Program-made: the position numbers and the translations under genes
Shown: one piece after another, positions 10,654 through 61,721 of the stretch
How positions within the stretch are numbered: the stretch's first letter is position 1
How the letters are laid out: each line of letters starts with the position of its first letter
The notes under the pieces: model-generated
What the model was told of the DNA's origin: nothing
Database searches by the model: none
Seen by the model: only the letters and a program-made list of their open reading frames with translations
Assembly: GCA_965214705.1 (NCBI GenBank)
Contig: CBDCCI010000002.1
Coordinates: forward strand, 224,001-288,000
Direction of reading: 5' to 3'
DNA: 64,000 bases
DNA from: Alphaproteobacteria bacterium
GTDB taxonomy: Bacteria; Pseudomonadota; Alphaproteobacteria; UBA828

Positions 10654-10655
10654 TC

Positions 10656-39406: not shown

Positions 39407-39496
39407 GTAAGCGGTATCGAGGCCCCATACTTCCAACGCATCTGATTTCGCGGCTGACTCTTGGCCTTGGCAAGGAGCCTTGGAGGAGGCATCGCG

Positions 39497-40446: not shown

Positions 40447-40539
40447 GGCGAGACGCAGGCGGGGCCGCAGATTTTTGTCGAGGTCCCGCCTGCACTTTTC
40501 CCTGGTCACGCATTGGCGAATCGGATTAAGGGAGCGGCC

Positions 40540-41737
40540 ATGCCGAAGGTCACGCCCTCACCCCTCAGCAGCGCCGGTTAGCCGTCGCCTGCGGTGGTTT
40601 CGGCGGCGCTGGCGACCCTGCAGGCGGAGCTTGCCGAGGAGCGCGTGGCGCGCCGTGCGACCGAAGCAGCCCTATGCGAAGCGGAGCAGGCACGCGGCGC
40701 GGCGGAGGCGGCGAGGCAGACGGCGGAAGCGCGGGCGGCACGGCTGGAGGCCGAGAACGCGCACAGCGCGGAGCAGATCAGCCGGCTTGAGCATCTCAAC
40801 AAGGAGCTCAGGAAGGCGCTGTTCGGTCCGCGCTCCGAGAAGCTCAACGAGGACGAGCGCCAGCTTACGTTCGAGGAGTTTTGGGCGGCGATCGCTGAAG
40901 CCGGCGGTCGGCCCGAGGCAGATGACCAGGAGCAGGACGAGGGGGCTGGCGGCAAGCGCCGGCGGCGCTCTTCCCGGGGGTCGCGCAGCGGGGTGCGCTT
41001 CGGGCCCCAGGTCGACCGGCGCGAGGAGGTGATCGAGCCGGACACGATCATGTGCCCCTGCGGCTGCGGCGAGATGACGAAGATCGGCGAGGACCGCAGC
41101 GAGCGGCTGGACTATGAGCCGGCGAAGTTCACCGTCATCGAGACCGTGCGCCCCCGCTACGCCTGCAACAAGTGCAAGGGCGGCGGGGTGGTGCAGGCGT
41201 CGGCGCCCGCCGCTCTGGTCGAGGGCGGCCTTCCCACCGAGGCTCTTCTGGCGCAGGTGCTGATCGCGAAGTACGGCGATCATTGCCCGCTCTACCGTCA
41301 GTCGCAGATTTACGAGCGCTCGGGGATCGAGGTTCACCGTGCGACGCTGGCGACCTGGGTGGGGCAGGCGTCGTTTCACCTGCGCCCCGTGGTCGCTTGC
41401 CTGAAGGATGAGCTGAAGAAGTCGGATCACCTGGGTCTGGACGAGACCACGATCCGCGTTCTCGACCCGGGCCGGGGCAAGACGAAGACGGGCTACATGT
41501 GGACCCTTGTGCGCGACGAGCGCCACTGGAGCGGCGCCGACCCGCCGGGCGTTGTCTATCGCTATGAGCCCGGTCGCGGCGGCAAGTATGGCGCCAGGCT
41601 CTTGAAGGGCTTTTCGGGGACGGTGCAGCTCGACGCCTACTCGGGCCACAACATCCTGGCGCGGCCGGACCGGCCCGGCGGCCCCGTGACGCGGGCTCTG
41701 TGCTGGGCGCACGTCAGGCGCAAGCTGAAAGAGGTGT
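40540..41737 (+). pseudogene. tnpC: IS66 transposase TnpC, 5' part
   Basis: FGPRSEKL, CPCGCG, KYGDHCPLYRQ, LDETT, DAYSG, CWAHVRRKLKEV; in-frame TAG at 40579 after ATG 40540; broken at 41737. Confidence 0.9.
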
Positions 41738-42109
41738 GAACCTTATAGTCGCTATTTGCGGTACCATTGCGCTGACGTAGGGTTGCAGTCTTCTCCTGTA
41801 TCGTTGCTATAATACAACGACTTAGGGTCCTTGTCAAGGGCGGATTGGGCCGGATCGAATAACACAGATGTGGATCGTGTGTCGTTGAGGAGTTGCATTT
41901 GGGGATGTCAATATGGAATCAGGCTTGTGACATCGGTGTGGTCCAGTTGGCGCGGAAGCTCGAATCGGTGAGCAACATAGAAACGATATGACATATCCCG
42001 GTCATGAGAACTATCGTAGGCATATTCGTGAATCAACTTCCGGATGCAGGATCCACTGTGTCGCAACCGCTGCAAGCCCTTTCGTGCGGATGGCGGCGAT
42101 GAGGGAGGA

Positions 42110-42451
42110 TGCCAGCGGACGCCGCCAGCGCGCGGTGATGAGACCGATGCGGAGTGGCAACGGATCGGCCGGGCAGCTGCGGCGAGCGGCATGGATCGCG
42201 CTTCGTGATCCATCGCGCGCTGGACCGGGACTCTCTGGGGCCGGAGGTTCTGCGCCGGGCGGTGCGCGAGATGCTGGTGCTGTCCAGGCTGGAGAGGGCG
42301 GCTGCGCGAGACCGGCGCCGGAGAAGACTGGGCAGACGCCTGTGACGCGGTGGACGAATGGATCGACCGGGAGGGCATGCTGGACCGGCTGACCAATCCC
42401 GGCGCGGCGAACCGCTGGAAGGCGGTGGGTCCGGCTGAGGAGGACGGGTAG
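42110..42451 (+). pseudogene. Frameshifted MobC-like/RHH remnant
   Basis: Fragments TDAEWQRIGRAAAASGMD and SRFVIHRALDRDSLGPEVLRRAVREMLVL in different frames. Confidence 0.35.
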
Positions 42452-42469
42452 TGACGGAGGAGGCGGGGC

Positions 42470-42634
42470 GGCCCACCGCCTCCGCCATGCCGACGGATAT
42501 CGTGCCGGGAGCGCAGCCGAGGTCGAGAAGGCGTATGTCGCGCTTGAGGTGCGGCAGCAGATGAGCGGCGTTCACAGCCGCGTTCCTGCGTTCGAGCACT
42601 TTCTGGAATTCGGGGCCGTGACCTCCATTGTGCA
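42470..42634 (-). pseudogene. Class I SAM-dependent methyltransferase N-terminal remnant
   Basis: EFQKVLERRNAAVNAAHLLPHLKRDIRLLDLGCAPGTISVGMAEAV; no intact start or C-terminus. Confidence 0.6.
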
Positions 42635-42872
42635 GGTGAGCCTCGACGCGTCCGGAGTCTCGTTGGGGCCCATCGACAGCTCCCTGTCTGAGTTGCCTCG
42701 GCATTGCTGCGCGCCACCGAATGCACCGAACCGCATCCCGCGGTTGCATGCACCGGCGCGCAGCCGGCGTCGCCAAGCGCTCCCATGTACCCGGCTGCCT
42801 ATAGATGCCGACAGATTCTGCGATCGCAGACGCCTTGGATGGACGAACAAGAAAATGAATTCCGCCTGCATC

Positions 42873-42893
42873 ATGCGACCGGATTTGACGCAT
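42873..42893. promoter_or_regulatory. Putative DriD-like WYL operator upstream of AAA+ ATPase
   Basis: ATGCGAC-N7-GACGCAT (6/7 inverted repeat), 41 bp before ATG 42935; resembles the Caulobacter DriD site as I recall it (ATACGAC-N7-GTCGTAT). Confidence 0.6.
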
Positions 42894-42934
42894 CTCTCTG
42901 CCAGACTGCCTCCGCATCACATATGGAGACAGTC

Positions 42935-45019
42935 ATGCCGACCGCCTATGAACGCCATCTCATAGCATCTTATCTCTCCAACGCTGCGGGGCGGCTTCAC
43001 CACCGCGACCGGGAAGCGTCCGCCCTGGCGGAATGGATCGCCGACCGCGACAACCGTTCTGCGTACGACCGAAGGAAGGACTTGTACTCTCGCCTTGTTC
43101 GTCTGGACCTCGAACTTGAGGAGCCCGTATCCGCACGACAGTTGCGCTGCTTGAAACAGGTCCTGCGCGATGAGTGCGCGGCCACGAAGGGAACGAAGCT
43201 CGACCGGACCGGGCAACGCCTCCGCCGCCTTGGGGAGGCCACGGGCCTCGAGGCCATCGACGTCGACATCCTGGAGCTGCTGCTGCGCTACCGGACGCAG
43301 CCGGTGATCGAGTCACTGGTCGACGACATCTTCCTCCACGCCAACAGGCGGGGGATACGTCTCAACGTCAGGGGCACGGCCGTTTCCACCCTTCTCGGCG
43401 TATCCGCCAGCGCCGTTCAGCGCCGTCTCACGACCGGGGCGCCGCTGGTGAGCTCGGGGCTTGTCGCCATCGACAGCGACGGCGACGTGACGGCCGTCGA
43501 CCGGCTGCGGCGGCTGGCCACGGTTCCCGACAGCGCCGGCCTCGACGTGAACCGCCTGCTGCTCGATGCCGCGCCCCCGAGCGAGCTTGAGTGGTCCGAC
43601 TTCGATCACATCGCCGAGGGGCGCGATCATATCGAGCGGCTGATCCGGGGCGCACTGCACGCCGGAGCGGCGGGCGTGAACGTGCTCCTCTACGGCCCGC
43701 CGGGAACCGGCAAGACGGAGTTTTGCAAGGTGCTGTCCGGGCGGCTCGGCGTAACCCTCCACAGCGTCGGAGAAGCCGACGACGACGGCGACGAGCCCAG
43801 CCGCCGCGAGCGGCTGCAGGAGCTTCGGCTCGCCCAGCGACTTCTCAGGCGCAACCGCGGCTCGCTGCTGCTGTTCGACGAGATGGAGGACCTGCTGTCC
43901 GACCACGCCGCCCGCGGACTCTTCCTTTTCGGGCAGCCGCTCTTCGCCGGCGCCCGCGACGGAAGCTCCAAGGTGTACATGCACAGGCTGCTCGAACGGG
44001 CGCCCGCGCCGACGCTCTGGACAATGAACGATGCCCGTTCGATCAGCCAGGCGCTCCTGCGGCGCATGATGTTCGCGCTGGAGCTGCGCCCGCCGACGGC
44101 GGCGGTGAGGGCGCGCATCTGGACCCGGCAGCTTGAGCATCACGGCATTGAGGCCGGGCCGGACGAGGCCCATGCCCTTGCGCAGGAGTTCGCCGCGACC
44201 CCCGGCGTTGCGGCCGGCGCCACCGCCGCGGCGCAGATCTCCGGCGGCGGCATCGACACGGTCCGGCGCGGGGTACTCGGCCTGTCCCGGGTGCTCTCCT
44301 GCGAGATGCCGTCCCAGGGAACGCCGCCGCTCTTCGACCCCGCGCTGATCCGGGCCGATATCGACCCGGTCGCGCTCGCCGACAGCCTCGCCGCCGCCGG
44401 GAGCCTGCGCTTCTCCCTCTGCCTTCAGGGGCCGCCCGGCACCGGCAAGAGCGCCTTCGTCCGCTATCTCGCCGAGCGCATGGGGCTGGAGGTGATGCAG
44501 AAGAGGGCCTCGGACCTGACGTCCATGTGGGTCGGGGAGACCGAGAAGGAGATCGCTGGCGCTTTTGCCGAGGCCCGCGACACCGGCGCCTTCCTGGTCT
44601 TTGACGAGGCGGATTCGCTGCTCGCCGACCGCCGCTTCGCCCGGCAGGGCTGGGAAGTCAGCCGGGTGAACGAGATGCTGACCTGGATGGAGAGCCATCC
44701 TCTGCCCTTCGCCTGCACCACCAACTTCGCCGAGCACCTGGACGCGGCAACGCTGAGGCGCTTCGTGTTCAAGGTTGCGCTCGACTACCTCTCGCCGGAG
44801 CAGGTCGAGACGGCGTTCCGGGCATACTTCGGTGTCACGCCGCCGGCGCGGGCCGCGGCGCTCACCGCGCTGACCCCCGGCGATTTCGCGGTGGTGCGGA
44901 AGAAGGCCGAATTCCTCGGCCGGCTGGAGGATCCTGACGCGCTGGCCGCGATGTTGAGCGCCGAGTGCGGCGCCAAGCCGGACCGGCCCCGACCGGTCGG
45001 CTTCAACTCTTCGCTGTAG
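42935..45019 (+). CDS. Double-domain AAA+ ATPase
   Basis: Walker A GPPGTGKT and GPPGTGKS; Walker B LLFDEMED and LVFDEADS; TTN..LDAATLRRF; C-terminal VGF; GGAG RBS. Confidence 0.92.
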   Translation: MPTAYERHLIASYLSNAAGRLHHRDREASALAEWIADRDNRSAYDRRKDLYSRLVRLDLELEEPVSARQLRCLKQVLRDECAATKGTKLDRTGQRLRRLGEATGLEAIDVDILELLLRYRTQPVIESLVDDIFLHANRRGIRLNVRGTAVSTLLGVSASAVQRRLTTGAPLVSSGLVAIDSDGDVTAVDRLRRLATVPDSAGLDVNRLLLDAAPPSELEWSDFDHIAEGRDHIERLIRGALHAGAAGVNVLLYGPPGTGKTEFCKVLSGRLGVTLHSVGEADDDGDEPSRRERLQELRLAQRLLRRNRGSLLLFDEMEDLLSDHAARGLFLFGQPLFAGARDGSSKVYMHRLLERAPAPTLWTMNDARSISQALLRRMMFALELRPPTAAVRARIWTRQLEHHGIEAGPDEAHALAQEFAATPGVAAGATAAAQISGGGIDTVRRGVLGLSRVLSCEMPSQGTPPLFDPALIRADIDPVALADSLAAAGSLRFSLCLQGPPGTGKSAFVRYLAERMGLEVMQKRASDLTSMWVGETEKEIAGAFAEARDTGAFLVFDEADSLLADRRFARQGWEVSRVNEMLTWMESHPLPFACTTNFAEHLDAATLRRFVFKVALDYLSPEQVETAFRAYFGVTPPARAAALTALTPGDFAVVRKKAEFLGRLEDPDALAAMLSAECGAKPDRPRPVGFNSSL

Positions 45020-45106
45020 CGGCGCAAGCCGTCCCGGGTTCCGTGTCCCGCCATCCCCCGCTAGGGTGACGGGCGCGGAACCCGCAGGCTCGGGAGAGGA
45101 GGCCCG

Positions 45107-46120
45107 GTGCGCTACGAGGGGCTGACGAACATCGTGAAGCTGGCCATTCGCATGCAGGGTCTGCGCGGCGGCATGACGCTCGACGGCATCCGGTCGGAGT
45201 TCGGCGTCAGCCGGCGCACGGCCGAGCGCATGCGCGACGCGGTCGAGCAGGCCTTCGGACCGCTGGAGATTGCCGAGAGCGACGACAACAGGCGCCATTG
45301 GCGGCTGCGCTCGGACGCGCTCCGCCGTCTCGCCCGGGTCTCGGCCGCCGAGCTGGCGGACCTCGCCGCCGCGGCCGACACCCTGGACGGCACCGGATTC
45401 GGCGAGCGCGCATCGGCGCTGCGGGAGTTGGACACCAGGCTGCGGGCCACCCTGCACGCGGACTCGCTCGCTCGCATCGAGGCCGATATCGAGGCGCTGA
45501 CGCAAGCCGAGGGCCTCGCCATGCGTCCGGGTCCCAGGCCGCAGGTGGACAAGGGTCTGCTCGCCATTCTCCGCGAGGCGATCGTCGGCTGCCGCTTGGT
45601 CGAGTTCCGCTACCTGTCTCAGTCCACGGGACGGCGCAGCCGCCAACTGATCGAGCCTTACGGGCTGCTCTACGGCAACCGCCCCTTCCTGGTGGGGCGG
45701 ACCGGCTGGACTCATGGCATGCGGCTGTGGCGTCTCGCGAACATGAGGAAGGCGCGCGTGACGGGCGAGAGCTTCGCCCGCGACCCGGACTTCGATCTGG
45801 AGGCCTATGCCCGGCGTTCCTTCGGCACCTTCCAGGAGGAACCGGTGGACGTGGTGCTGCGCTTCGCCGCCGGGGCGAAGCGGGACGCGTCCGCATTCCT
45901 CTTCCACCCCGGTCAGTCCGCCGAAGAGAACGCCGACGGCACGCTCACGGTCCGCTTCGCCGCCGGCGGCATCGACGAGATGTGCTGGCACCTCGTCACC
46001 TGGGGCGAGAGCGTCACCGTGGAAGAACCCGACCGCCTCCGCCACCGCCTCGCCGCCATGTGCTCGGCGCTGGCCGCGCATCATGGCCTCGATCAAACAG
46101 CGCCGGGAGATCGCAGATGA
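45107..46120 (+). CDS. HTH-WYL-WCX transcriptional regulator, DriD-like
   Basis: GMTLDGIRSEFGVSRRTAERMRDAV, MRPGPRP, EPYGLLYGNRPFLVG, WRLANM, FLFHPGQ, EMCWHLVTWG. Confidence 0.9.
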   Translation: MRYEGLTNIVKLAIRMQGLRGGMTLDGIRSEFGVSRRTAERMRDAVEQAFGPLEIAESDDNRRHWRLRSDALRRLARVSAAELADLAAAADTLDGTGFGERASALRELDTRLRATLHADSLARIEADIEALTQAEGLAMRPGPRPQVDKGLLAILREAIVGCRLVEFRYLSQSTGRRSRQLIEPYGLLYGNRPFLVGRTGWTHGMRLWRLANMRKARVTGESFARDPDFDLEAYARRSFGTFQEEPVDVVLRFAAGAKRDASAFLFHPGQSAEENADGTLTVRFAAGGIDEMCWHLVTWGESVTVEEPDRLRHRLAAMCSALAAHHGLDQTAPGDRR

Positions 46121-46386
46121 AATACCGCGTGACACTGGCGGACGCACCGCCCGACACGGCAAATTCGTTCTGATTTTCGCCGCTGGCTGACGGCACTCAA
46201 TCATGCTCCACCCGCTTTCGTTGAGGACCTTGCAGGGCTGGCCACCGGATTTGGCCGCCATCGCGCCGCCGCATAGCGCTGCCCTTGGCCGCGAGGGTCG
46301 AGCACGGCTTCATCTGAACATGACCGCTCGCCCCCGGCGTTCCGAGGGTTGGCGTCGCGGCGATGGACGCGGCCCGGAGGGGGCGG

Positions 46387-47124
46387 TCAGCTGGGCGCTG
46401 TCCGCGGAGCGACGTTGTCGGTCATTTTCAGGAAGTCGAGAAGCCGCCTCGGTTTCCTGGCCAGATTGCGCATGGTCTCGGCGACAGCGAGCCCGCGCCC
46501 CTTGATAACGCCGATGGCGAAGCGCCGCAGCAGGGTCATGTTCTCCGGACCGTAGCCTGAACGGATACGGCATCGGTCCTCGTCGAAGCTCCAGTCGAGG
46601 ATGTGATGGGCCGCCTCGATGGTCCAGTGCCCGCGATTGAGGGTGAGCAGGCGTTCCGGCGATGCGGCCTGCGCACTCAGGCTGGTGACGCCGTAAGCCG
46701 TCTCGCAGCTTCTCTTCCCGGATTTGACGTGCCGGGTTTCGCGCCGCACGGCGAAGACCTGTCCGACGCCGGGGAAGTTGAGGTAGTCGTTGAGCTCGCT
46801 GGAGACCCAGATGGAGCGCCGCTCGCGGCGGCCGTGCTCGGGCTTGGGGCTCTCGTCCGCGAAGTCCGGCGCGCGGCCTGCGATGGCCTCATCGAGAGTG
46901 AGCCGGATGTCGTCGAGCAAGGTGGGCTGGTTGCCCTTGACGGTGAACAGATAGTCGGCGCCGCGGTCGCGCAGATAGGAGGCCAGCGCGCGCTGGGTGA
47001 GCAGAGCATCGGCGGTGACGGTGCGGCCCGCGATGTCGGGCACCGTCTCGAGCAGGGGGATGATGGTGCCGATCTCGTTGGTGCGCTTCTCCCCGTCGTC
47101 GGCGTCGGGCCTCATGCCGACTTT
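46387..47124 (-). CDS. ISAs1 transposase C-terminal frame (-1)
   Basis: TNEI, TADALLTQR, VKGNQP, HGRRERR, RGHWTIE, FDEDRCR. Confidence 0.88.
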   Translation of the reverse strand, partial: KVGMRPDADDGEKRTNEIGTIIPLLETVPDIAGRTVTADALLTQRALASYLRDRGADYLFTVKGNQPTLLDDIRLTLDEAIAGRAPDFADESPKPEHGRRERRSIWVSSELNDYLNFPGVGQVFAVRRETRHVKSGKRSCETAYGVTSLSAQAASPERLLTLNRGHWTIEAAHHILDWSFDEDRCRIRSGYGPENMTLLRRFAIGVIKGRGLAVAETMRNLARKPRRLLDFLKMTDNVAPRTAPS

Positions 47125-48200
47125 TTTTGACCCCAGGGCGCCTTGGTGTCGTGGCCTATGATGCCGAGCACATGAGCCTGCGTGCCATCGTCATCGATGG
47201 CGCCGCGGATGGTCTTGCCGTCGATGGCCAGCGCGCTGTCGCCCGAGCCGTGGGCCTCGTGCCAGGCCCTGAGCGCGGCGTCGAGCTGGACCGGATCGAC
47301 GCGGATCAGCAGGCTGCGCATCGCCGACAGGCTGGGCGGGCGGTACCGGCCGTCGCGGCGGCGCACGCGGAAGCGCTGCAGCACCCTGGGACTGAGGTCG
47401 TCGACCCATTCGCTGATCGCCTTGTAGCCGCGCATGCCACAGAACGTCGCGGCGGCGGCGAGCGCCAGTACCGTCGGCAGCGCATGGCGCCGGCCCTGGC
47501 GGCGGCGGGGATCGTCGATGCCCTGGAAGAACTCGGGGAGGGATCGCATCTGTGCGGCGGTGAGCGTCATCTTCGGCACTCCATGTCGCAGGCGGGGGTC
47601 GAGATCGTCGGCCCGCAGCCGGGCCCGCGCGGTGCGGGACAGGGGAAGAAGGAACACGCGCTTGGGCCGTGCGTGCTCGCTGTAGCCGGCCCCACCGCGA
47701 GCGAAGCCGCGGGTGCGCCCGACCTCGATCCAGTTGGCCGCGCGGTAGACCGTGCCCCGGAAGAGCGCCGGGTCCACGAACGTCTCCGCCAGCAGCACGT
47801 CGTGACCGAAGCGGATCGGCCAATCCCTCACCAGACGGCGCGTGCACAAAGACAGCACCCGCGAGCCGAGATTGCGTGGACCGCCGGGGAGGATCAGGAA
47901 GCGCGAGTTGTTGGTGACCAGGTGAAGACGACCGAACTGAAGGCCGCGGTCCCAGCCAATCCAGCGATCGCGCGCACCGCACTTCAGCGCCGCTGCCGAG
48001 AAGACCGCCAACGCCAGCCATCGCCCTCGATGGTGCGCGACATAGCGCACGGTCTCGCCCATCCCCGGCACCGCGCCGAGGTAGTGGTGTGTCTGCATCA
48101 CGTCGCGGAAGCGGGCCTCGTCCTCCGCCGCCACGATGTCGACCACCACCTCCGATAGAGCTGCCACAGCTTGCCAGTCCCCACGGCTGCCTCGCGGCAC
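47112..48200 (-). CDS. DUF4338 (DruA-like) domain fused to ISAs1 transposase N-terminus
   Basis: HHYLG, RDRWIGW, NNSRFLILP, AETFVDP..GTVYRAANW, DPRRRQGRRHAL, AIDGKTIRG; start uncertain. Confidence 0.86.
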   Translation of the reverse strand: MPRGSRGDWQAVAALSEVVVDIVAAEDEARFRDVMQTHHYLGAVPGMGETVRYVAHHRGRWLALAVFSAAALKCGARDRWIGWDRGLQFGRLHLVTNNSRFLILPGGPRNLGSRVLSLCTRRLVRDWPIRFGHDVLLAETFVDPALFRGTVYRAANWIEVGRTRGFARGGAGYSEHARPKRVFLLPLSRTARARLRADDLDPRLRHGVPKMTLTAAQMRSLPEFFQGIDDPRRRQGRRHALPTVLALAAAATFCGMRGYKAISEWVDDLSPRVLQRFRVRRRDGRYRPPSLSAMRSLLIRVDPVQLDAALRAWHEAHGSGDSALAIDGKTIRGAIDDDGTQAHVLGIIGHDTKAPWGQKKSA

Positions 48201-48618
48201 TCATATCAGGACACGGGGAGCAAGTCCACTATTTCAGGCAACTCGCTGGCCGGCCTAGCCAAAGGCTGAAGTACAAATCCGCCCTGCACCGCCCGATTCT
48301 CCCTTCCGGGACCCCGAGGAGTTCGAGACATGGGAAGAAACCCCGGACCGCATTTTTTTCTCGCCACGAGGGCCGAGCGCAGATGGTCGGCGATAGCACT
48401 CGAGTCCCGGCGCATGATCCCTGTTAGCGGCCCGATGTGGCGCGACGCAGGATGGCCGCTCCCGGGGATATGCCAGCCGCGAAGCGATCGACAGCGAAAC
48501 CGCCAGGTTGGCCGCCACGGAGAAAACCGGGAAGCAGACCCGCTCACCCATATGGCGCCTCCTGCGGCGCGGACGCGCGAAGGCCGCAAAGGACTGGAAC
48601 TGGAAGAAGGAAACTATC

Positions 48619-49155
48619 ATGGCCTGGCAGGGATCGTTGGACGGCCTTTGCGGCCCCTACGCGATCGTCAACGCCTATCATCAGTGCGATATCGAGGAGG
48701 ACTGGCTGGGCCAGGACATCTTCGAAATCGCGTGTTCGGCCATCGGCGACTGGCCGGACGAGCTGTGGGAAGGAACAACGTTCCGGCAGATGAGAACGAT
48801 GCTCAAAGCCTGCCAGGAGGCGCTCAGGAATGCCTACGAGGAAGCGGACTGCGAGTATCCGATCGAGATCGAGTATCCCTTCCGCAGGAAGGCGCCGCGC
48901 TCCAGGAAGAAATTCCGGAAGCGGCTTCACAGGATATTTTCCCGCGATGAAGTCATCTGCGGAATCGTCGGCATGGAGAATCCCGCCGCCCACTGGTTCT
49001 GCTTCGTCAAGCTGAAGAAGGCTCTGATCGTCTTCGACACGGCGCCCCCGAGCTTCGGCGGAAAGAGCCGCGTCAGGCTGGAAGATCTCCATGTCGGCGC
49101 AGACGGGAAGAAGAAACTTGTCGTTCAACCCCAGAGAGCTGATCGTATTCTGTGA
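48619..49155 (+). CDS. Hypothetical protein, possible papain-like cysteine-peptidase fold
   Basis: QGSLDGLCGPYAIVNA, HWFCF, LIVFDT give Gln/Cys-His-Asp order; AAGGA RBS. Confidence 0.6.
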   Translation: MAWQGSLDGLCGPYAIVNAYHQCDIEEDWLGQDIFEIACSAIGDWPDELWEGTTFRQMRTMLKACQEALRNAYEEADCEYPIEIEYPFRRKAPRSRKKFRKRLHRIFSRDEVICGIVGMENPAAHWFCFVKLKKALIVFDTAPPSFGGKSRVRLEDLHVGADGKKKLVVQPQRADRIL

Positions 49156-49264
49156 GGCATGACCCTGTCGGCGCAGACTTGTGCGTCGAGTGATTGCCTG
49201 TCGGTTGGGGCCGCCGCCGCGTGAACCAGCTGCACCCGGGACATGTTGCGTGAGGATTGAAGAG

Positions 49265-54900: not shown

Positions 54901-55323
54901 CCCGCCCGCGCCGAGATTCTGATCCGGGCCCTGGGCCGACCCGTGACCGACGATCCCGCGCAGGGCCTTGCGCCGGCGGAGCTGGCGGGCTGTGTGCTCC
55001 GCGCCCTTGCGCTGCCCGAGGTCGCCGCTCTCAGGCCGGGGCTCGTGCCGGAGCTCCCGGTCTACGGCTCCACTGAGACCGGCAGCCAGGAGGAAGCTAC
55101 GCACGGCATCGTCGACGCCATCGCCTTCGATAAGGACGGCGCGCCGAAGGTCGTCATCGACTGGAAGAGCGACGTCGACCCCACACCCGACACCCTCGAC
55201 CACTACCGAGCCCAGATCCGCGCCTACCTCGACATGACCGGCGCGGCGCGTGGCTTGGTTGTGTTCGTAACGTCCGGAGTCGTAGACTCGATTATGCGGG
55301 AGGACGGGGACTCTGGACATTGA
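51919..55323 (+). CDS. AddA/RecB-like UvrD helicase-nuclease
   Basis: EAGAGSGKT, VTFT, STIHGFC, VDEFQDT, VGDPKQAIYRFRGAD, TNFRS, TMHAAKGLEWP, YVAATRA, GIVDA..IDWKSD; TGATG coupling. Confidence 0.93.
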   Translation: MAGGRLDLSDDAARHAAIAVHDRSFLVEAGAGSGKTAVMAGRITMLLAGGAEPRSIAAVTFTEFAASELLIRVRAFVSRLAVGDIPVELRVALPDGLSEEQRGNLAEADAALDEMTCSTIHGFCQRLIAPYPVEADIDPGAAVMDRDQAELSFAEIVDAWLREELDGGASGLLPELVLRNPGATVGLIRTVLDHLRRHREFSPYELQDMDQLATGFRAAVGDFGTFLDEAEAEEPETATIAGHFQSLAGEVAAALPVETPAALVALLLMAPHDDLCTGSGSLRAYRKKGKWGAAARRAGLAKADADRLNDAASARYARCCATWTAFQQAIATHVLADLVPLVQPIVGLFREHKRAAALLDFDDLIFSARDLLHGHDDVRRALAARYRHVLVDEFQDTDPLQTEILWRLCGEPPPGGDSDDWAAFVLRPGALFLVGDPKQAIYRFRGADIAAYVGAREAFRVQTADAVLSIATNFRSCAPITEYVNERFETALSGENGQPGFQALDPFRPAREEGPSVAALDVEVADENGKASAAGQRDGEAEAVADMCARLIGSETILDPESDVQRSCRAGDIALLAPTGTDLWRYEEALEQRGIPVATQAGKGLYRRQEIQDLIAVTRVFADRRDTLALGALLRGPLVGLTEEELLDIVWALPRADDAPGDLPRLDLRVAPKAIENPLARDIIEKLQALQRRVNATTPHALLSQAVDVLRVRPILLRRHRGQAERALANVDLYLSFSRAYAVRGLRAFAEAMTAAWSDEARAVEGRPDAQEDAVALYTMHAAKGLEWPIVVPINTMTRVRTPGSAVTDRASGRFYCPVLGVAPTGHEAARKDEGEELGCERVRLWYVAATRARELLVLPRLDVAAADSAWLSVVELGLEALPALDLERLPPEMDAGEPEAENAQTRESFAAEAAAIAARTHRIVWRAPSRDEDTARPVLLEEQPAILATDGDGAPADGNAAAAIQGGRERGTILHKLIEEVLTGETAEEETAVPARAEILIRALGRPVTDDPAQGLAPAELAGCVLRALALPEVAALRPGLVPELPVYGSTETGSQEEATHGIVDAIAFDKDGAPKVVIDWKSDVDPTPDTLDHYRAQIRAYLDMTGAARGLVVFVTSGVVDSIMREDGDSGH

Positions 55324-55376
55324 ATACAAACGTGCCGAGCCAGCGTGTAGTCTCTCGCCTGGTCGGAACGACCGCA

Positions 55377-57055
55377 GGGTGTAGGTCTGGCATGGTGATC
55401 GTAAGTCATTGATTTAGCGCGATTGGCGGGTGGCCGTAGGCAGCCAGAATCGGGTTTTCGTGACAATCGGCCGGTGCAGGGCCGGATTTTGTCACAACGG
55501 CGGCATCCAGCAGTGGTGGGTGGGAACGCTCCGCACCGCGAGATGCGGTAGGATGCCGCGCCGACAACCCAACATCAGACCCAACATCAGGAGCGTTCCC
55601 ATGCCAGTGTCGCAGTCTCTCATCGCCTCGTCCATCGACCTTTTGGGCCTGCCTGCCGAAGTCGCCGAAGCGGTCGCCCAGGTGGTGGAGTTCTGTCGCG
55701 AACAGGCTGGGTCTGACCCGTCTGCCGAGACGTTCGAAACGGTTGAGACGGGGCTGCGGGACGCCATGAACGGCTTGGGTTGCAAGCTCCTTGGGGCCTT
55801 CGCCGAGAGCCGCGACGACGGTGCGAGCCGGATCGAGCGCGACGGACAGAGCTGGGTCCGGGTGGCGGCGACGCCGAAGACGATCATGACGACGCTCGGT
55901 CCCGTGACCTATCGGCGTGCGCGCTATCGCAGCGGCGCGAGCAGCACGTCGCTGGTGCCGGTGGACGAGAGCCTGGGCCTCATCGACGACTACCTGACGC
56001 GGCCGGCGGCGCAGCTCGGGCTGATGATGATGGGCCACTGTACGCCGCGTGAAGCGGAGGAGTTCTTCGCGAAAATGGGCGGAATGACGCCGTCGGTGAG
56101 CACGCTGCAGCGCCTGGCCCTGAGCATGCATGAGCACTGGGAGAGCGTCGCCCCGGAGACGCTGGCCAGCATCCGTGAAACCCAGGGCATACCGCCCGAT
56201 GCGGTCACCGCGTCCGTCTCCCTTGACGGCGTCATGGTGGCGCTGCGGGCCGGCGAGGACGGCCGTGCCGAGGCGTGCTGGCGCGAGGCCTCTTGCGGCA
56301 CGGTCTCCTTCCACGACGCCGAGGGCCAACGGCTGAAGACCCTCTATCTCGGCCGTATGCCCGAGAGCGGCAAGGCCGCGCTGAAAGCGCAACTTGCAAG
56401 CGAGGTCGCCCATATCCGCCGTGTGAGCCCGAAGATCAGGATCGGCGCCGTCGCCGACGGGGCCGCCGACAACTGGACCTTCCTCGAAAGCCTCTCGCCC
56501 GAGACCGAGGTCATCGACTTCTGGCACGCTTGCGAGCATCTCCGCGTGGCCTCTGACCATGCGGTGGCGCGCCACTGGTTCGAGAAGCACCGCGAAATCC
56601 TGCGCCACGACCCCCGCGGCGTCGACAAGGTGATCCGGGCACTGCGCTACCTCCTGGACAGGGCAAAGGGGGACCCGGCCGAGATCGAGCGCGAGCTGGC
56701 CTTCTTCCGAAAGCACCGCCATCGGATGCGCTACCACGCCCTGAAGGAAGAGGGCATCGCCATCGGCTCGGGTGTGGTCGAGGCGGCCTGCAAGACCCTC
56801 GTCGCGCAGCGCTTGAAACGCTCGGGCATGCGCTGGCGGATCGACGGCGGGCAGGCGGTTCTGACCTTCCGCGCCCTGATCAAATCCGGCCTCTTCGACC
56901 GGGCATGGGATGCGCTCATGGACGCCCGATCCGGACCAGCTAACGACAACATCAGCCCAACCGAAGTCCTGGCACTCGCTGCTTGACCAAAATGAACCAG
57001 CCCATATCCTTTAGCGCCATCACGACTGGCATATCGCCATACGAGAATCACACCC
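55377..57055 (+). mobile_element. ISKra4/ISLre2-like insertion sequence
   Basis: IRL GGGTGTAGGTCTGGCATGGTGAT, IRR revcomp GGGTGTGATTCTCGTATGGCGAT; 8-bp TSD CGACCGCA at 55369-55376 and 57056-57063. Confidence 0.88.
55601..56986 (+). CDS. ISKra4/ISLre2-like DDE transposase
   Basis: SLDGVMV, ADGAADNW, IDFWHACEHL, IGSGVVEAACK..RLKRSGMRW; AGGAG RBS. Confidence 0.88.
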   Translation: MPVSQSLIASSIDLLGLPAEVAEAVAQVVEFCREQAGSDPSAETFETVETGLRDAMNGLGCKLLGAFAESRDDGASRIERDGQSWVRVAATPKTIMTTLGPVTYRRARYRSGASSTSLVPVDESLGLIDDYLTRPAAQLGLMMMGHCTPREAEEFFAKMGGMTPSVSTLQRLALSMHEHWESVAPETLASIRETQGIPPDAVTASVSLDGVMVALRAGEDGRAEACWREASCGTVSFHDAEGQRLKTLYLGRMPESGKAALKAQLASEVAHIRRVSPKIRIGAVADGAADNWTFLESLSPETEVIDFWHACEHLRVASDHAVARHWFEKHREILRHDPRGVDKVIRALRYLLDRAKGDPAEIERELAFFRKHRHRMRYHALKEEGIAIGSGVVEAACKTLVAQRLKRSGMRWRIDGGQAVLTFRALIKSGLFDRAWDALMDARSGPANDNISPTEVLALAA

Positions 57056-57089
57056 CGACCGCATGACTTCAGACAAAGAGGGCCCGATC

Positions 57090-57917
57090 ATGCCGACTGC
57101 GCAACCGCCGTCGTCGGACGTCCCGGAGTGGCTGGCTCGAGCTTCATCCGATACGATGAACACCGAGCCATTTCCGCTCCACGATATTCTCCGTGGCTCG
57201 CTGTATTACCCCGCGTCCTCCTTCGACGGTGATCCCGTCGCATATCTCGCGGGATGCATTGCGAGTTTCATTTACGTCGATTTCGGGCACGGATTAGATG
57301 AAGTCAAAGCCGAGCTGCAAGAACCGGGGTTTCTCGGTTACGAACGCGTTGGCAGCCGATCGGTGACCGAATGCGAATTGACCCCAGAGGGCTGGAGCCC
57401 CGAGCATCCGGCAGAAGGTGACCGAGGAAGGCGCTTCCTGCAGAACCGCATAAAGCCGCCGTTTTGTATCTGGTCCGTGTTCGCGCGCAAATCAGATTAT
57501 TCGCCCTCTCACGGCCCGTCCCGGTTCAGCTTTCTTTATCTTTGCGCAGATGGTAGGGCGGCGTTTCAGGCACTCTATCTGTCGAACGAGCATAGACCGA
57601 AAGCCGTCGCACTGATTCAACCTGGTGACAACGTATTCGAAATCCCCGAGGGGTTGTTCGCGAGAAATGTTCTCCAAAATTCCGCCGGCGCGCCCGAGTT
57701 CCTGCTGTACGGTGGAGCGGGAGGACGCGACTTCTATCTTCAGCCGCCGTGGCCCGGTTATCGAGCTCCGTTCTGTTGTCAGCGTGAAGACAGTGACAAG
57801 TCTTGCACTCTCCGCGAACATAGCGTCGGTCAATTCGCCGAGTGTCGTACGGTCGCCTACCGCGAGGCCTGCTTCCTCGGCAACACCAGCATTGGCGTTT
57901 GGGTCAGAGATTCATGA
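57090..57917 (+). CDS. Hypothetical protein
   Basis: Long lower-GC ORF with protein-like composition (SLYYPASSFDGDPV, SFIYVD, FLYLCADG); start 57063 or 57090. Confidence 0.65.
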   Translation: MPTAQPPSSDVPEWLARASSDTMNTEPFPLHDILRGSLYYPASSFDGDPVAYLAGCIASFIYVDFGHGLDEVKAELQEPGFLGYERVGSRSVTECELTPEGWSPEHPAEGDRGRRFLQNRIKPPFCIWSVFARKSDYSPSHGPSRFSFLYLCADGRAAFQALYLSNEHRPKAVALIQPGDNVFEIPEGLFARNVLQNSAGAPEFLLYGGAGGRDFYLQPPWPGYRAPFCCQREDSDKSCTLREHSVGQFAECRTVAYREACFLGNTSIGVWVRDS

Positions 57918-58006
57918 CACTACATCGCCTCTCGTCACCTGAGGCTCGCGTGACTTCAGCGGGTTGTGCTTCACTTTCTTGTTGTCAACGAGCACGGAGG
58001 CACAAC

Positions 58007-58084
58007 ATGTGGACTGAAAACACTCTGCCGAAGTATGACCAGGAGAAGTTGCGTTACGCAATCGATGTTACCGACGATGAATGA
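58007..58084 (+). pseudogene. IS5-family transposase N-terminal remnant
   Basis: GGAGG RBS; MWTENTLPKYDQEKLRYAIDVTDDE* resembles MWT..R.Y.SDLTD.EW. Confidence 0.6.
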
Positions 58085-58178
58085 CGTTGTTCCCACACGT
58101 CTTCCCCGCAGAGAGTAAATCTCATATCGGGGTGTCCATTCCAAAATCTGCGACTCACCCTGCATCGCAGCCCTATTT

Positions 58179-58718
58179 CTAACCGATCCTCTTGTTGTAT
58201 TTGGGCAACCGATTATGACGAATCAGGAAATCGGCTTGAAGAGTCATCTCAACATCCGTTGGTTGATGCTCTTCCGGCAAACGTGTGAACTTTCCCCTGT
58301 CACGATCAGAAGGAGTCCAAACCGCTACCGAAAGACGATTCCTCTGTCGCTCCCAACGCTCCTTAAATTCTTGACACCGTTTTATGTACTCTTTGTACGC
58401 CGCTTTTGCTTTTTTCTTCCCATATATCTCACGCAATTCAGCGATTTTCTCCCGAAAGTTGGGGTTTATTTTCGACTCGTGAAATGAATTTCCTCCCGCA
58501 TGAGAGTCGAAATAATATTCGCAAGCGTTTTCAAAAGCATTCAGCCTTTCCCACAAATTGGTTGCGCGACCAATATATATGATGTTCCTGCATAGGATGT
58601 CTGGCTGCCTGTTGCGTCGTACACCTCTGGCAATAAGATAAACGCCCCGGCTGTTGAGTTGTTTCTTCAGTTCATTCCGTGCCCTAAAGGCGCACCAATC
58701 AGACATATCGAGCTTCAT
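58179..58718 (-). CDS. GIY-YIG-like nuclease-domain protein
   Basis: RGVYLI, IIYIGRATNLWERL, VE..L..LPKYN; GAAGGAGG RBS; low GC. Confidence 0.7.
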   Translation of the reverse strand: MKLDMSDWCAFRARNELKKQLNSRGVYLIARGVRRNRQPDILCRNIIYIGRATNLWERLNAFENACEYYFDSHAGGNSFHESKINPNFREKIAELREIYGKKKAKAAYKEYIKRCQEFKERWERQRNRLSVAVWTPSDRDRGKFTRLPEEHQPTDVEMTLQADFLIRHNRLPKYNKRIG

Positions 58719-58974
58719 GTTTGGTAAACCTCCTTCAATGCTGAGACCATCCCGATCCGATGAAACTGGTCCCGCAACTGCGCACCTGAAAATCCGCAGG
58801 CGCCAAGCCGGATTACCACAATCCCTCACGTCCCAATACTCGACGAAATCAGACCTGGGCAGTTACCAATTCATAATGCTTCCGTCAACCGCAAACGGCG
58901 GAACGGCAGCGAGTTCCGCCGGAGTTCGATGTGCGCGGGCACGGGCACGGTGCCAGCGTCCAAAGCCTTGCCGG

Positions 58975-59285
58975 CCCCAGAGGCGATGTCAAGATTGCCG
59001 GCGATCACGACAAGGTTCGCGTGGCAGGGCAGCGCTCGATGGCTTCTACGTCGTCCGCACCAGCCTGGCCGCGTGCGCGCCTGCGTCCTGCTGTACATGC
59101 TCGCCTGCCACGTCGAATGGCACATGCGCCGAAAGCGCGCTCCCATCCTGTTCGACGAGGACAACCCGGCCGGCGCCGAAGCCGCGCACGCCTCCATCGT
59201 CGCTCCGGCAAAGCCCTCGCCTTCGGCCCGTCGCAAGGCCGCCGGCAAGCGCACGCCGGACGGCGCGCCGGTGCATGCCTTTGGC
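58975..59285 (+). pseudogene. IS1634-like transposase C-terminal remnant
   Basis: ALDGFYVVRTSL and RVRACVLLYMLACHVEWHMR..APILFDED..SPSARRKA..RTPDGAPVHAF in different frames. Confidence 0.7.
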
Positions 59286-59306
59286 AATGAACCGTCGCGT
59301 GATTCG

Positions 59307-60464
59307 TCACCGCGGCGGACAAGCGTCCTGTACCATGATGTCTGCGATGGCCTGCCCGACCCTCTCGGCCGCTTCCTCGATGTCGCGGTCTCCGAGATGA
59401 GCATAGCGCAGCGTCATGCTTACGTCGGAATGCCCAAGCATGCGCGAGACGACCGGGATCGGTACGCCGTTCATCACCGCGTGGCTGGCGTGCGTGTGGC
59501 GGAGATCGTGAAGGCGAACGTCCTCGATGCCCGCCTCGCGCCGGGCGCGATTCCAGAACGCAAGGTTGTGGCTGCGGGGGCGGGCGGGATCTCGTGGGGA
59601 CGGAAAGACGAAGGGGCTTGCGCCGCGCGGCCGGCGTTCGAGAATACGACGGGCATGGGTATTGAGGGGAACGATCCTGGGCCCGGTCTTGCCGTCGGCG
59701 AGGACCAGCCTGTCGCGATCGACTTCCGACCAGCGCAGCCCGACGATCTCGCTCCTGCGGCATCCGGTGAGCAGCAGGAGCCGGATGATGTCCGCCTGCT
59801 CGCGGCTGCTGTTGCGGGTCTGCCTGTCCAGGATCCGATGGAGCCTGGCGATCTCGTCGCGGGACAGAAAGCGCGTGAGCACCCGTCTCGGGTTCCTTTT
59901 CACGGCCCGCGCGGGGTTCGTTTCAAGGTGGCCGCGGGCGATTGCGAAGTTGACGATCTGCGAGAGAAGATCGAGCGCGCGATTGGCATTGCCGGGCGCG
60001 ATCCGGCTGAACCGGTCGAACCACCGCGTGATGTGCGCCGGGGTGATGCGGTCGAGCGGCTTCGAGCCGAAGGCGGGCAGGAGCTGGCGGTCGAGCAGGG
60101 ACTGGACGCCCTTTCTCGTGGACGGCTTGTATCCGTCGAAGTGGGCCTCCTTCCACGCGCCCTCGACGAAGTCGCGGAACAGCGGCGCAGCAGGCTTGGG
60201 CGCTCCGGTCGCTTCCAAGTCTGCCTTGCGCGCGTGACATTCCCGGCGGACCTCCGCCACGGACTTCAGCGACACCGGGCCGAGAGTGACCCGCCTCGAC
60301 CGGCCGCCGGTGTTCCCCAGCAGGACATAGCTCTTCCCGCCGGTGGGCCGGACCCGGACCCCGAGGCCGACAAGATGATTATCCCAGACCGCGTACTCCC
60401 GCTCGCGGGGGCGGAGGCTGGCGATGGCGCGGTCGGTGAGCCGCATCCGTTCCCTGCCGGCCAT
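59307..60464 (-). CDS. Arm-type tyrosine integrase, second of pair
   Basis: VWDNHLVGLGVRV, TGCRRSEI, DGKTG, HDLRH, LGH, TLRY. Confidence 0.93.
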   Translation of the reverse strand: MAGRERMRLTDRAIASLRPREREYAVWDNHLVGLGVRVRPTGGKSYVLLGNTGGRSRRVTLGPVSLKSVAEVRRECHARKADLEATGAPKPAAPLFRDFVEGAWKEAHFDGYKPSTRKGVQSLLDRQLLPAFGSKPLDRITPAHITRWFDRFSRIAPGNANRALDLLSQIVNFAIARGHLETNPARAVKRNPRRVLTRFLSRDEIARLHRILDRQTRNSSREQADIIRLLLLTGCRRSEIVGLRWSEVDRDRLVLADGKTGPRIVPLNTHARRILERRPRGASPFVFPSPRDPARPRSHNLAFWNRARREAGIEDVRLHDLRHTHASHAVMNGVPIPVVSRMLGHSDVSMTLRYAHLGDRDIEEAAERVGQAIADIMVQDACPPR

Positions 60465-60467
60465 GGA

Positions 60468-61592
60468 TCAACTCTCCACCAGCGCGTCGCCGACGGTCTC
60501 GGCCGCCTCGCGCACCATGGCGTCGGCAAGGTGGGTATATTTGAGCGTGGTTTCCGCGTTGCGGTGTCCGAGCAGCCGGCCGATGGCGAGGACGGAGACG
60601 TTTTCCTTCAAGGCGAGGGTCGCGTTGGTATGGCGGAGATCGTGGAGCCGGACGTCGCGAAGACCGGCCTCGGCGCGAACCTCGTACCAGAACCGGTTCA
60701 GCCAGCCCGTGCTGCGCGGCCCTGCGGCCTGCGGCGCCGGGAAGACCCAGCGGCCCTTTCGTTCGAGCGTATTGAGCACCTTGCGGGCCGGCGCGGACAG
60801 CCAGACGGTTCTGGGTCCGGTCTTGGAATCGCGCAGGAACAGATGCCCCTCGCGGTAGTCGGCCCAGCGGAGCGTCAGGATCTCGCTCTTGCGGCATCCG
60901 GTCAGCAGAAGAAGGCGGACGATCGCAGCCCGCTCCGGGCAGCGCTCCTCGTGGGCCGAGAGCACCGCCGAGAGGCGTCGGATTTCCTCGTCGGACAGGA
61001 AGCGTTCCCGCCCCTTGCGGCGATATCTGCGGATGCCCCGGCATGGGTTGGAGCCTTCGGGCCTGAGCCCCATCGCCTCGGCCTCGCGCATGATGACGGA
61101 GAGCACCGGCATCGAGCGGTCGGCGGCGACCGGGGTGGCGCGGAGCGCGGCGAACCAGCGCCGGACGTCCTTGCCGTCGATGCCGGCGATCTGCCGTCCC
61201 GAGAAATGGGGCAGGATCTGGTTCTTGAGGTAGCAGCGGTTGACCTCGAGGGTTCCGGTCTTCCAGAGGCGCCGGTGACGCTCGAACACGGTTTCGGCGA
61301 CGGCCTCGAAGAGGGTCTCGGCGGGATCGCGGGGGGCGTCCCCGCCCCGCCGGATGGCGGCGAGCGTCTCGCGTGCGCGCGAGCGCGCATTCTCCACGCT
61401 CATGGTGCCGGCGTCGCCTATGATCTTCCAGACCCGCTCGCCGCAGTGCTGGCAGTGGACGAAGAAGCGCTTGCGGCCCGAGGGCAGGACACGGACGCCG
61501 AAGCCCCTGAGCTTGCCGTCGCGGACGTCGCGTGCGGCGTTGCGGGGCTTCAGCGCGCTCACGCGGGCGTCGGTGAGGGCGGGTCTGGTCAT
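60468..61592 (-). CDS. Arm-type tyrosine integrase, first of pair
   Basis: RDGKLRGFGVRV, TGCRKSEI, DSKTG, HDLRH, LGH, TLKY; GGGAGA RBS; 3 bp from next gene. Confidence 0.93.
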   Translation of the reverse strand: MTRPALTDARVSALKPRNAARDVRDGKLRGFGVRVLPSGRKRFFVHCQHCGERVWKIIGDAGTMSVENARSRARETLAAIRRGGDAPRDPAETLFEAVAETVFERHRRLWKTGTLEVNRCYLKNQILPHFSGRQIAGIDGKDVRRWFAALRATPVAADRSMPVLSVIMREAEAMGLRPEGSNPCRGIRRYRRKGRERFLSDEEIRRLSAVLSAHEERCPERAAIVRLLLLTGCRKSEILTLRWADYREGHLFLRDSKTGPRTVWLSAPARKVLNTLERKGRWVFPAPQAAGPRSTGWLNRFWYEVRAEAGLRDVRLHDLRHTNATLALKENVSVLAIGRLLGHRNAETTLKYTHLADAMVREAAETVGDALVES

Positions 61593-61721
61593 TCGCGGTC
61601 TCCCGGTTGCGGTTGCAGCCGGGGAACAGGGGGTTGCCCCATGCGTCCGGATGCAACAAGATGAGGGAGAGAAAACAACCCTGCGTCAGTCAGTTAGCAC
61701 CGAAGGTGCGCAAAGAGGTGT

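Follow-up and report, generated by a model that had tools for sequence, protein, structure and literature searches.

A paired-integrase element in an IS66 transposase gene and the N5-GGTGT sites of its family in an alphaproteobacterial genome

What kind of element carries two integrase genes side by side, is bounded by a 10-bp repeat and sits in the middle of a transposase gene? The question is raised by 64,000 nucleotides of contig CBDCCI010000002.1 of assembly GCA_965214705.1, an alphaproteobacterial metagenome-type genome of three long contigs with an estimated contamination of 8.7%. This whole stretch will be called the window, and its positions are numbered 1-64,000. In it the tnpC gene of an IS66 insertion sequence (IS) is interrupted by 19,974 bp (41738-61711), the tnpC insert, which carries the tyrosine integrase genes int1 and int2. 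An earlier description of the same DNA, the original prediction, took it for a cargo-carrying tyrosine-recombinase element with base-exact ends, and the present analysis supports this. We consider it probable, with moderate confidence, that it is a site-specific element which uses two integrases and in which the crossover region is partly inherited from the last target.

The sequence AAAGAGGTGT occurs exactly twice in the window, once at each junction, in agreement with the direct repeat of the original prediction. The genome contains at least 40 IS66 copies. In seven intact copies, 99% identical, the matches to the left flank and to the right flank share exactly this 10-mer as their overlap, and three intact copies read directly have it once, continuous with the left flank. 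Because the 10-mer is single in intact IS66 copies, the insert is 19,974 bp long and the 10-bp repeat is a true one; without its two internal IS insertions the insert would measure 16,153 bp. The break in tnpC falls between positions 162 and 164 of the Pfam profile DDE_Tnp_IS66. When the insert is compared by BLAST with its own genome, homology to sister copies ends at 61710/61711, its last base, and matches to a left-end profile begin at about 41738.

The same BLAST comparison finds many paralogous int2-int1 modules with 72-85% nucleotide identity, and tblastn gives about 130 integrase matches in the genome. About 19 integrase pairs lie at 66-93% amino acid identity, about 14 at 54-65% and about 15 at 35-41%. 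A scan for right ends, in which the terminal dyad of the element was required and the next ten bases were left free so that GGTGT was not required, gave 37 right ends, followed by N5-GGTGT in 35 cases and by N5-CGTGT in 2; the dyad pattern is absent from the distant clade at 35-41% identity. The left-end profile gave 31 matches, with GGTGT before 26 and GGCGT before 2; three with no such motif were dropped, leaving 28 left ends. In deduplicated flanks strong conservation of the target is confined to GGTGT, and G is rare directly before it (1 of 34 attR flanks and 0 of 27 attL flanks). A family with many copies at many insertion sites bears out the transposon-like behaviour proposed originally. 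The suggestion that IS66 tnpC might be the specific target did not hold: the family occupies no fewer than 25 different N5-GGTGT sites in this genome, of which tnpC is one, and the three intact IS66 copies in which the site was read are all unoccupied. Nor is the repeat a duplication made by a transposase, since GGTGT is conserved and the 5-mer before it is common to element and target. Judged from these junctions, the 10-bp repeat is an att-type core.

Family elements are also found nested, each with its own matching 5-mer pair, at C1 360465-382340, C1 429326-505846 and C1 3355696-3391598 (positions in this genome carry the prefixes C1 to C3). The element at C1 3001623-3009618, with the right flank AGGTG-GGTGT, lies inside the int1 gene of another copy, and its flank matches int1 genes at about 80% identity. 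For copy C3 512979 a left end suggested by a chance 10-mer match was discarded, since it is one end of a multi-copy IS.

The relation between the two 5-mers of a copy was analyzed in 20 left/right pairs, which were joined on the grounds of position, orientation and nesting. No base differs between the 5-mers in 9 pairs, one in 7 and two in 4, which makes 15 mismatches in total; random re-pairing gives a mean of 68, and none of 20,000 shuffles reached 15. The mismatches are distributed 2/0/2/7/4 over positions 1 to 5, so that positions 4-5 hold 11 of the 15 (binomial P = 0.009 if all positions are equally likely). Seven copies with 2.4-kb integrase modules that are 95.7-98.6% identical sit at seven unrelated sites and have seven different CGNNN 5-mers, which argues that the specificity is not fixed in the proteins. 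The attL 5-mers ACGCT, CGTCA and CGCGA recur beside unrelated flanks.

Empty sites tell which of two differing 5-mers belonged to the target. For the copy at C3 1751275/1780844 three identical empty sites have CGAGC, as in attR, and attL has CGCGA. For pair 8 all five empty homologues have ACGAT, as in attR, while the ACGCT of attL is the 5-mer of a sister element; for pair 6 the two closest orthologues have CGTCC, as in attR. In pair 9 the situation is the opposite: the CGCGA of attL is found in four of five orthologues. The tally of target-like attR to target-like attL is thus 4 to 1 (pairs 20, 8, 6 and 7 against pair 9, with pair 7 judged from a paralogue only) and does not establish a side bias. 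No empty sites for pairs 13, 5 and 3 were found in five related genomes. Since one junction keeps a 5-mer foreign to the empty site, the 5-mer appears to travel with the element. The junctions fit a recombination within N5-GGTGT which would prefer identity to the carried 5-mer, tolerate mismatches at positions 4-5 and pass the new bases on.

Both integrases have an arm-binding, a SAM-like core-binding and a catalytic domain (Pfam Arm-DNA-bind_3, E 2.4e-12 and 1.3e-7; Phage_integrase, E 3.1e-21 and 4e-27) and are therefore of the IntSXT/P4 type. In the account of integrase subgroups given by Smyshlyaev et al. (2021, PMC8138268), Arm-DNA-bind_3 (DUF4102) followed by SAM-like and catalytic domains marks the IntSXT subgroup. 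Among the 37 copies 25 have complete pairs, and these were used for the tree and for counting the catalytic residues R, K, H, R, H and Y. All six are present in 25 of 25 Int1 proteins; in Int2 the first five are present in 25 of 25 and the tyrosine in 24. In the tree Int1 and Int2 fall into a clade each (support 1.0), which we read as two old, separate lineages; within the tnpC insert they are 37% identical. The order int1-int2 is kept in most of the more distant pairs (35-41% identity), three of which were scored int1-int1. XerC and XerD are the model for a heteromeric tyrosine recombinase, and by analogy Int1 and Int2 may together form a recombinase of this kind. A stronger version, which we offer tentatively, would be an obligate heteromer whose target consists of five invariant bases and a five-base crossover segment copied from the previous site; specificity would then reside in the DNA and be re-programmed at each imperfect integration.

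The pair of the tnpC insert is a mosaic. Its Int1 is 94% identical to that of a sister (C1 384057-386321) whose Int2 is only 69% identical; its Int2 is closest, at 83%, to that of another sister (C1 1570699-1572954), whose Int1 is 75% identical. These identities suggest that halves may be exchanged between integrase pairs.

The ends carry further conserved sequences. The subterminal inverted repeat of the original prediction was recovered, CTGACGTAGGGTTG at 41772-41785 having a 13/14 inverted partner at 61676-61689; in family alignments it lengthens to an imperfect repeat of about 25-30 bp. It is a subterminal accessory sequence and not the crossover site. The GTTGC/GCAAC words noted earlier near both ends are there as well, and two of them lie within family-conserved GTTGCA-N3-GGGGA blocks, which have the same orientation in both arms. 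The terminal dyad was considered as a single-strand hairpin; its folding is no better than that of shuffled sequences (z -0.85 and 0.03), and it is treated as a double-stranded inverted repeat. The palindrome TCGTTG-N8-CAACGA, also described before, lies at 41801-41820 with TATAAT inside at 41808-41813, and a predicted outward-facing promoter overlaps it. Of the 15 left ends of the same end type (14 which start G-C-A/T-C and the GAACC end of the tnpC insert), 10 have the promoter arrangement at an identical distance from the terminus; 6% of shuffled sequences have any promoter match. No promoter-like site was found between the right terminus and int1. Judging by its position, the outward promoter would drive int1-int2 across the joint of a circle. 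The outward promoter of ICEclc is a parallel case of integrase expression that depends on the circle.

From these observations the following model can be formulated. Int1 and Int2 would act jointly as a heteromeric recombinase, probably aided by the GTTGCA-N3-GGGGA blocks as arm-type sites at both ends. Recombination of attL with attR within the 10-bp N5-GGTGT would release a circle and restore the target, the order at the circle joint being right end, 5-mer, GGTGT, left end. The promoter of the left end would read over this joint into int1-int2. The circle would re-integrate at a GGTGT preceded by a 5-mer which is equal or nearly equal to the carried one, and tolerated mismatches, mostly at positions 4-5, would leave the old 5-mer at one junction and that of the target at the other. 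The carried 5-mer and the preferred target would then drift hop by hop, and dozens of copies would therefore come to lie at many different sites. Sisters might spread from cell to cell with their own NikA-like protein and TrwC relaxase and with the mating apparatus of co-resident F-type elements; the tnpC insert, which has no relaxase, a broken NikA-like gene and two IS, would be capable at most of excision and re-integration. What the sequences show directly are the boundaries, the repeat, the motifs common to the family, the statistics of the 5-mers, the catalytic residues and the gene content. A heteromer, arm sites, precise points of cleavage, a role for the promoter and present activity are parts of the model which we infer from sequence.

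A number of observations weigh against this model or parts of it. For 17 of the 37 right ends there is no left partner within 150 kb, and where two left ends were possible the one given by nesting was chosen, which was also the choice with the fewest mismatches. Tyrosine recombinases usually have an overlap of 6-8 bp, and the identical stretch of 10 bp exceeds this. In pair 6 the closest empty orthologues have GGTGC where both junctions have GGTGT; this would be a polymorphism or else a conversion, and a conversion lies outside what the simple model predicts. The left ends of the GGTCC and GAGTCC types give no promoter match by the same criteria, except for one off-register case, and the Pfam matches of the sister NikA-like proteins (E 4e-5 to 2e-4) are under the curated cut-off. 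In contigs of the public runs X1, X2, X3 and X5 (two studies), searched over 41725-61724, no circle joint or excised form was found among the joints listed, contigs being apt to drop rare forms; the listed skips with sides of about 20 nt look spurious. Finally, the lineage of the tnpC insert is single-copy in its genome and the three IS66 copies read with the identical site are empty, so that this insert may be inactive.

Some of the same data can be explained in other ways. The copies could be islands with fixed sites, one attB per integrase lineage, the repeat being the core of the lineage and the many sites reflecting many old lineages. Three copies which are 97.7-98.5% identical do lie in homologous GTT(A/G)A-GGTGT-ATTCCGGTTG sequences, two copies lie in the same repeated sequence with GACGT, and 9 of the 20 pairs have identical 5-mers. 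This explanation leaves the 11 mismatched pairs and the seven near-identical modules at seven unrelated sites unaccounted for, as well as the lack of any strongly conserved target position beyond GGTGT, and we find it unlikely. A strand-biased copy-out of the SE/Tn554 type, in which a single strand is exchanged, the donor stays in place and the flank of one side is always carried to one side, would suit the high copy number, which fits a replicative mode, and the four of five mismatched pairs with a known empty site in which attR is target-like and attL foreign; SEs are described as leaving no empty site and a 6-bp fingerprint at one end (PMC10214605, in its account of SE integration). Pair 9, with attL target-like in four of five orthologues, runs the opposite way, and four of five does not differ from 50:50. 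Moreover tfp, srap and tnpC-like genes are all lacking beside the pair, copies being homologous as far as the int2 stop codon and no further, and similarity between the carried 5-mer and that of the target is not described for SEs. This mode, too, seems to us improbable.

It could also be that only one integrase recombines and that the other is a directionality factor, a regulator or the enzyme of a separate reaction such as excision or multimer resolution. Single IntSXT-type integrases suffice for known ICEs (integrative and conjugative elements) and islands, at least those treated in PMC8138268, and with Pfam no excisionase-like gene was recognised in the insert. Yet all six catalytic residues are kept in 24-25 of 25 pairs, both proteins retain the arm-binding domain, and the genes are tightly linked (3-nt gap) in an order conserved across mutually distant clades; such a division of labour is, we believe, quite improbable. 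The last explanation makes the repeat a target-site duplication from staggered cuts by a transposase and the integrases mere cargo. The repeat is indeed perfect, and single in the empty site, and there are inverted repeats near the ends. No transposase is associated with the ends, however, both internal IS being separate multi-copy elements; 35 of 37 copies have the same GGTGT as one half of the repeat; 11 of 20 pairs are imperfect, one side keeping a foreign 5-mer; and the ends co-vary with the integrase pair and not with any DDE gene. The family data already contradict this explanation, which we regard as scarcely tenable.

The family extends beyond this genome. Relatives of Int1 were present in 20 of 20 genomes of the same genus, with 4 to at least 48 matches each, and in none of four genomes from other genera of the same family. 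A public genome collection gave 56 loci; 5 were cut at the end and dropped, and 47 of the remaining 51 have the terminal dyad, with GGTGT 5-7 nt past it in 41 of the 47. The record titles of these loci name uncultured Alphaproteobacteria and Defluviicoccus. Two loci with the same end come from metagenome-assembled genomes labelled Gammaproteobacteria, for which mis-binning is possible. Across a sample of 400 genomes of the class, the full end pattern has 29 occurrences in the own genome and 8 in one other genus; five further genomes have one each, which is about the level of a reversed-pattern control. One genome (G328), of another genus and family of the class, has eight full right-end patterns, five with the same 5-mer; on the strength of these ends its copies are a second expansion of the family, outside the genus.

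The features of the tnpC insert and of its target are presented in Table 1.

Table 1. Coordinates of the tnpC insert, its ends and its IS66 target in the window
Feature	Positions	Strand	Basis or remark
IS66 left part, target: tnpA 39461-40099, tnpB 40096-40446, tnpC 5' part 40594-41737	39461-41737	+	Pfam HTH_Tnp_1, TnpB_IS66, zf-IS66, DDE_Tnp_IS66 positions 2-162
attL core copy: variable 5-mer AAAGA and invariant GGTGT	41728-41737	+	Single in intact IS66 copies
Integrative element	41738-61711	not assigned	Sister homology stop and left-end profile
Left subterminal inverted repeat (CTGACGTAGGGTTG..., running into TTCTCC)	41772-41800	+	Conserved in 28-sequence left-end alignment
Predicted outward-facing sigma-70-like promoter: -35 TTGACA, 17-nt spacer, -10 TATTAT	41809-41837	-	11/12 consensus matches
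GTTGCA-N3-GGGGA block, candidate arm-type integrase site, left arm	41892-41905	+	Columns at least 90% conserved in left-end alignment
NikA-like ribbon-helix-helix mobilization gene, broken	42090-42455	+	Pieces in three frames; DNA alignment to two intact sister genes
Cargo: double AAA+ ATPase 42704-45019, WYL/WCX regulator 45107-46120	42704-46120	+	Pfam AAA, WYL, WCX; weak IetA/IteA-like domain matches far under cut-off
ISAs1-family IS, secondary insertion	46144-48285	-	Pfam DDE_Tnp_1, DDE_Tnp_1_assoc; NCBIfam ISAs1 under cut-off; multiple genomic copies
Cargo: AddB-like PD-(D/E)XK nuclease 49181-51919, AddA-like UvrD helicase-nuclease 51904-55323	49181-55323	+	Pfam PDDEXK_1, UvrD-helicase, UvrD_C
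ISKra4-family IS, secondary insertion	55377-57055	+	About 25 genomic copies at 99.9% identity; NCBIfam ISKra4 168 bits, under 205 cut-off
Low-GC cargo, two genes without assigned function	57063-58829	57063-57917 +, 58179-58829 -	GC 0.50-0.58 vs about 0.69
int2, 385-aa IntSXT/P4-type tyrosine integrase	59307-60464	-	Pfam Arm-DNA-bind_3, Phage_int_M, Phage_integrase
int1, 374-aa IntSXT/P4-type tyrosine integrase	60468-61592	-	Pfam; stop codon 3 nt from int2 start codon
GTTGCA-N3-GGGGA block, candidate arm-type site, right arm	61612-61625	+	Conserved as gTTGCAGCCgGGG in 37-sequence right-end alignment
Right subterminal inverted repeat (GGGAGAGAAAACAACCCTGCGTCAG)	61664-61689	+	37-sequence right-end alignment
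Terminal dyad GCACC-GAA-GGTGC then GC, last bases of element	61697-61711	+	In 37/37 own-genome right ends by construction of the scan
attR core copy AAAGA-GGTGT	61712-61721	+
IS66 tnpC 3' part	61712-62239	+	Pfam DDE_Tnp_IS66 positions 164-284, DDE_Tnp_IS66_C

At the left ends of the family there is a conserved gene of about 120 codons whose nearest Pfam family is NikA-like. Three deletions (1, 4 and 2 nt; at about 42141, 42195 and 42294) break it in the tnpC insert. One sister of 13.9 kb (L090) has three NikA-like genes followed by a TrwC relaxase of 1592 amino acids (Pfam E 4.5e-74); 90%-identical TrwC relaxases follow four left ends, and more distant ones go with other end types. The original prediction stated that neither relaxase nor phage genes are inside: with Pfam none is found in the tnpC insert, and the broken gene of a mobilization protein is nevertheless present. 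It further called the element non-conjugative, which is right in so far as it has no conjugation genes of its own; the trait is secondary, sisters carrying NikA-like genes and TrwC. An integrative and mobilizable element (IME) is defined by an integration module with a relaxase and oriT of its own and no mating apparatus; sisters have relaxase and NikA-like genes, the tnpC insert has no relaxase, and no oriT was identified. On this gene content the family is probably integrative and, originally, mobilizable, and the tnpC insert is apparently a decayed member.

A possible helper lies next to it. The window has F-type TraK, TrbI, TraC, TraU, TraH and TraG, a TrwB-type coupling protein and a TrwC relaxase in 13890-36696, and at 1-3923 a row of four IntSXT-type integrase genes; these belong to a distant clade (35-41% identity to Int1/Int2), one runs off the start of the window and one has no catalytic domain. 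The region from 1-3923 on looks like a conjugative element with an integrase tandem of its own, and since the F-type region follows these integrases the IS66 that was hit would lie at its edge. Such a neighbour could serve as helper for relaxase-bearing sisters. A BsuBI/PstI-type restriction endonuclease beside an Eco57I-type methylase (8046-10764) is cargo of this neighbouring conjugative element. On the other side, at 62426-64000, there are a DUF3800 gene and a Xer-like integrase which continues past the end of the window.

From left to right the insert contains the broken NikA-like gene, the AAA+ ATPase, the WYL/WCX regulator, the ISAs1-family IS, the AddB-like and AddA-like genes, the ISKra4-family IS, the two low-GC genes, int2 and int1. 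The AddA-like protein scores 274.8 bits against NCBIfam addA_alphas, under the cut-off of 860, and the low-GC cargo has no match in Pfam, PADLOC or NCBIfam. The cargo was considered as a known defence system; PADLOC gives domain-level matches only (IetA-like AAA, WYL, GajB-like UvrD), and NCBIfam scores are far under the cut-offs; we assign the cargo to no such system. In contigs of the public runs X1 and X5, position 46143 is connected to 48286, the two sides having 11 bases in common, so that the element also exists in a form free of the ISAs1 insertion. Paralogues of the cargo are found elsewhere in the genome, AAA+/WYL at C1 1346522-1349345 (79% nucleotide identity) and AddA-like at C2 16978-20655 (84%). 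The AAA+/WYL paralogue is about 3.4 kb away from another element with paired integrases, so that different elements appear to have cargo modules in common. In the ISAs1-family transposase genes at 37938-39122 and 47112-48200 the N-terminal part matches Pfam DruA (Druantia; E about 1e-21) and is fused to DDE_Tnp_1_assoc, which on these profile matches is an unexpected link from a defence-protein family to an IS.

Integrative islands are usually regarded as bound by their integrase to one chromosomal site. In the present genome a module with two integrases has reached dozens of sites, in genes, in insertion sequences and in other copies of itself. The 20 junction pairs are a natural record of stepwise change of an attachment site and provide a testable model for how new targets are gained; they also give reason to ask why two integrases stay together. 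For annotation it matters that such islands have no tRNA landmark and would be missed by tRNA-based island finders, while the motif pair delimits them to the base. Should specificity be carried in the DNA, the family would be a halfway house between site-specific integration and transposition, and the 5-mer might be altered at will to redirect integration. New here are the copy number, the statistics of the junction pairs, the near-identical modules at different sites, the link to NikA/TrwC and the outward promoter.

It remains to compare the family with known systems; the original prediction could not assign the element to a named family, and we likewise find none that fits. In the full-text literature, searched outside subscription journals and supplements, we found no description of tandem integrase pairs of the P4/IntSXT type. 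With P4/IntSXT islands, ICEs and phages the family has in common the domain layout, the residues R-K-H-R-H-Y, the integrase at one end and a short shared core. The members dealt with in PMC8138268 have a single integrase, with an excisionase, and are targeted to one conserved locus, which is often that of a tRNA or of a conserved gene; in the present family diverged paralogues (37% identity) are always paired, the core is GGTGT only, and the many sites lie in ordinary genes and IS. MOBF (TrwC) IMEs resemble the sisters which have integrases, NikA-like accessory proteins and TrwC and no mating apparatus, the tnpC insert itself being without relaxase. We know of no MOBF IME with a paired integrase. 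A DDE transposon with target-site duplication does not fit, no transposase belonging to the ends and GGTGT being invariant in 35 of 37 copies. RIT elements have three tandem recombinases, and not two, between terminal inverted repeats, and the inverted repeats here are subterminal. BIM elements, described from Betaproteobacteria with one recombinase and an unrelated protein (PMC3414803, as far as its description goes), were set aside.

SEs and Tn554 come closer. According to the sections of Idola et al. (2023, PMC10214605) that concern them, they need two tyrosine recombinases, have imperfect inverted repeats, carry a few flanking bases along and behave like transposons. The SEs of that account have the genes intA-tfp-intB-srap and a 6-bp spacer, were found in Gammaproteobacteria only and leave no empty site. 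In the tnpC insert 3 nt separate int1 from int2, with no intervening gene, and past int2 the copies of the family share no gene, which sets the family apart from SEs; from Tn554 it is set apart by the lack of a conserved third gene (tnpC), that is by gene set and not by similarity to TnpA/TnpB. Unlike both it has integrases of another subgroup and the core N5-GGTGT.

GInts, as portrayed in the main text of Bardaji et al. (2017, PMC5385486), carry several tyrosine recombinase genes as an operon at one of their ends, together with variable cargo, and have imperfect flanking repeats of 10-11 nt. Their excision yields variants of the attachment site by resolution of a heteroduplex, and the similarity between site and target sets the frequency of integration (PMC5385486). 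In the same portrayal the operon ginABCD encodes three Cre/Xer-like recombinases and GinD, a small helix-loop-helix protein; an arm-binding domain and a relaxase module are absent, and there is one main target gene. The present family has two IntSXT-type integrases and no fourth gene, dozens of targets, and NikA/TrwC in sisters; with two integrase genes only and homology ending at the int2 stop codon it does not belong to the GInts. As far as can be judged from sequence, the evolution of its attachment sites is most like that of GInts and its domain layout most like that of P4/IntSXT islands.

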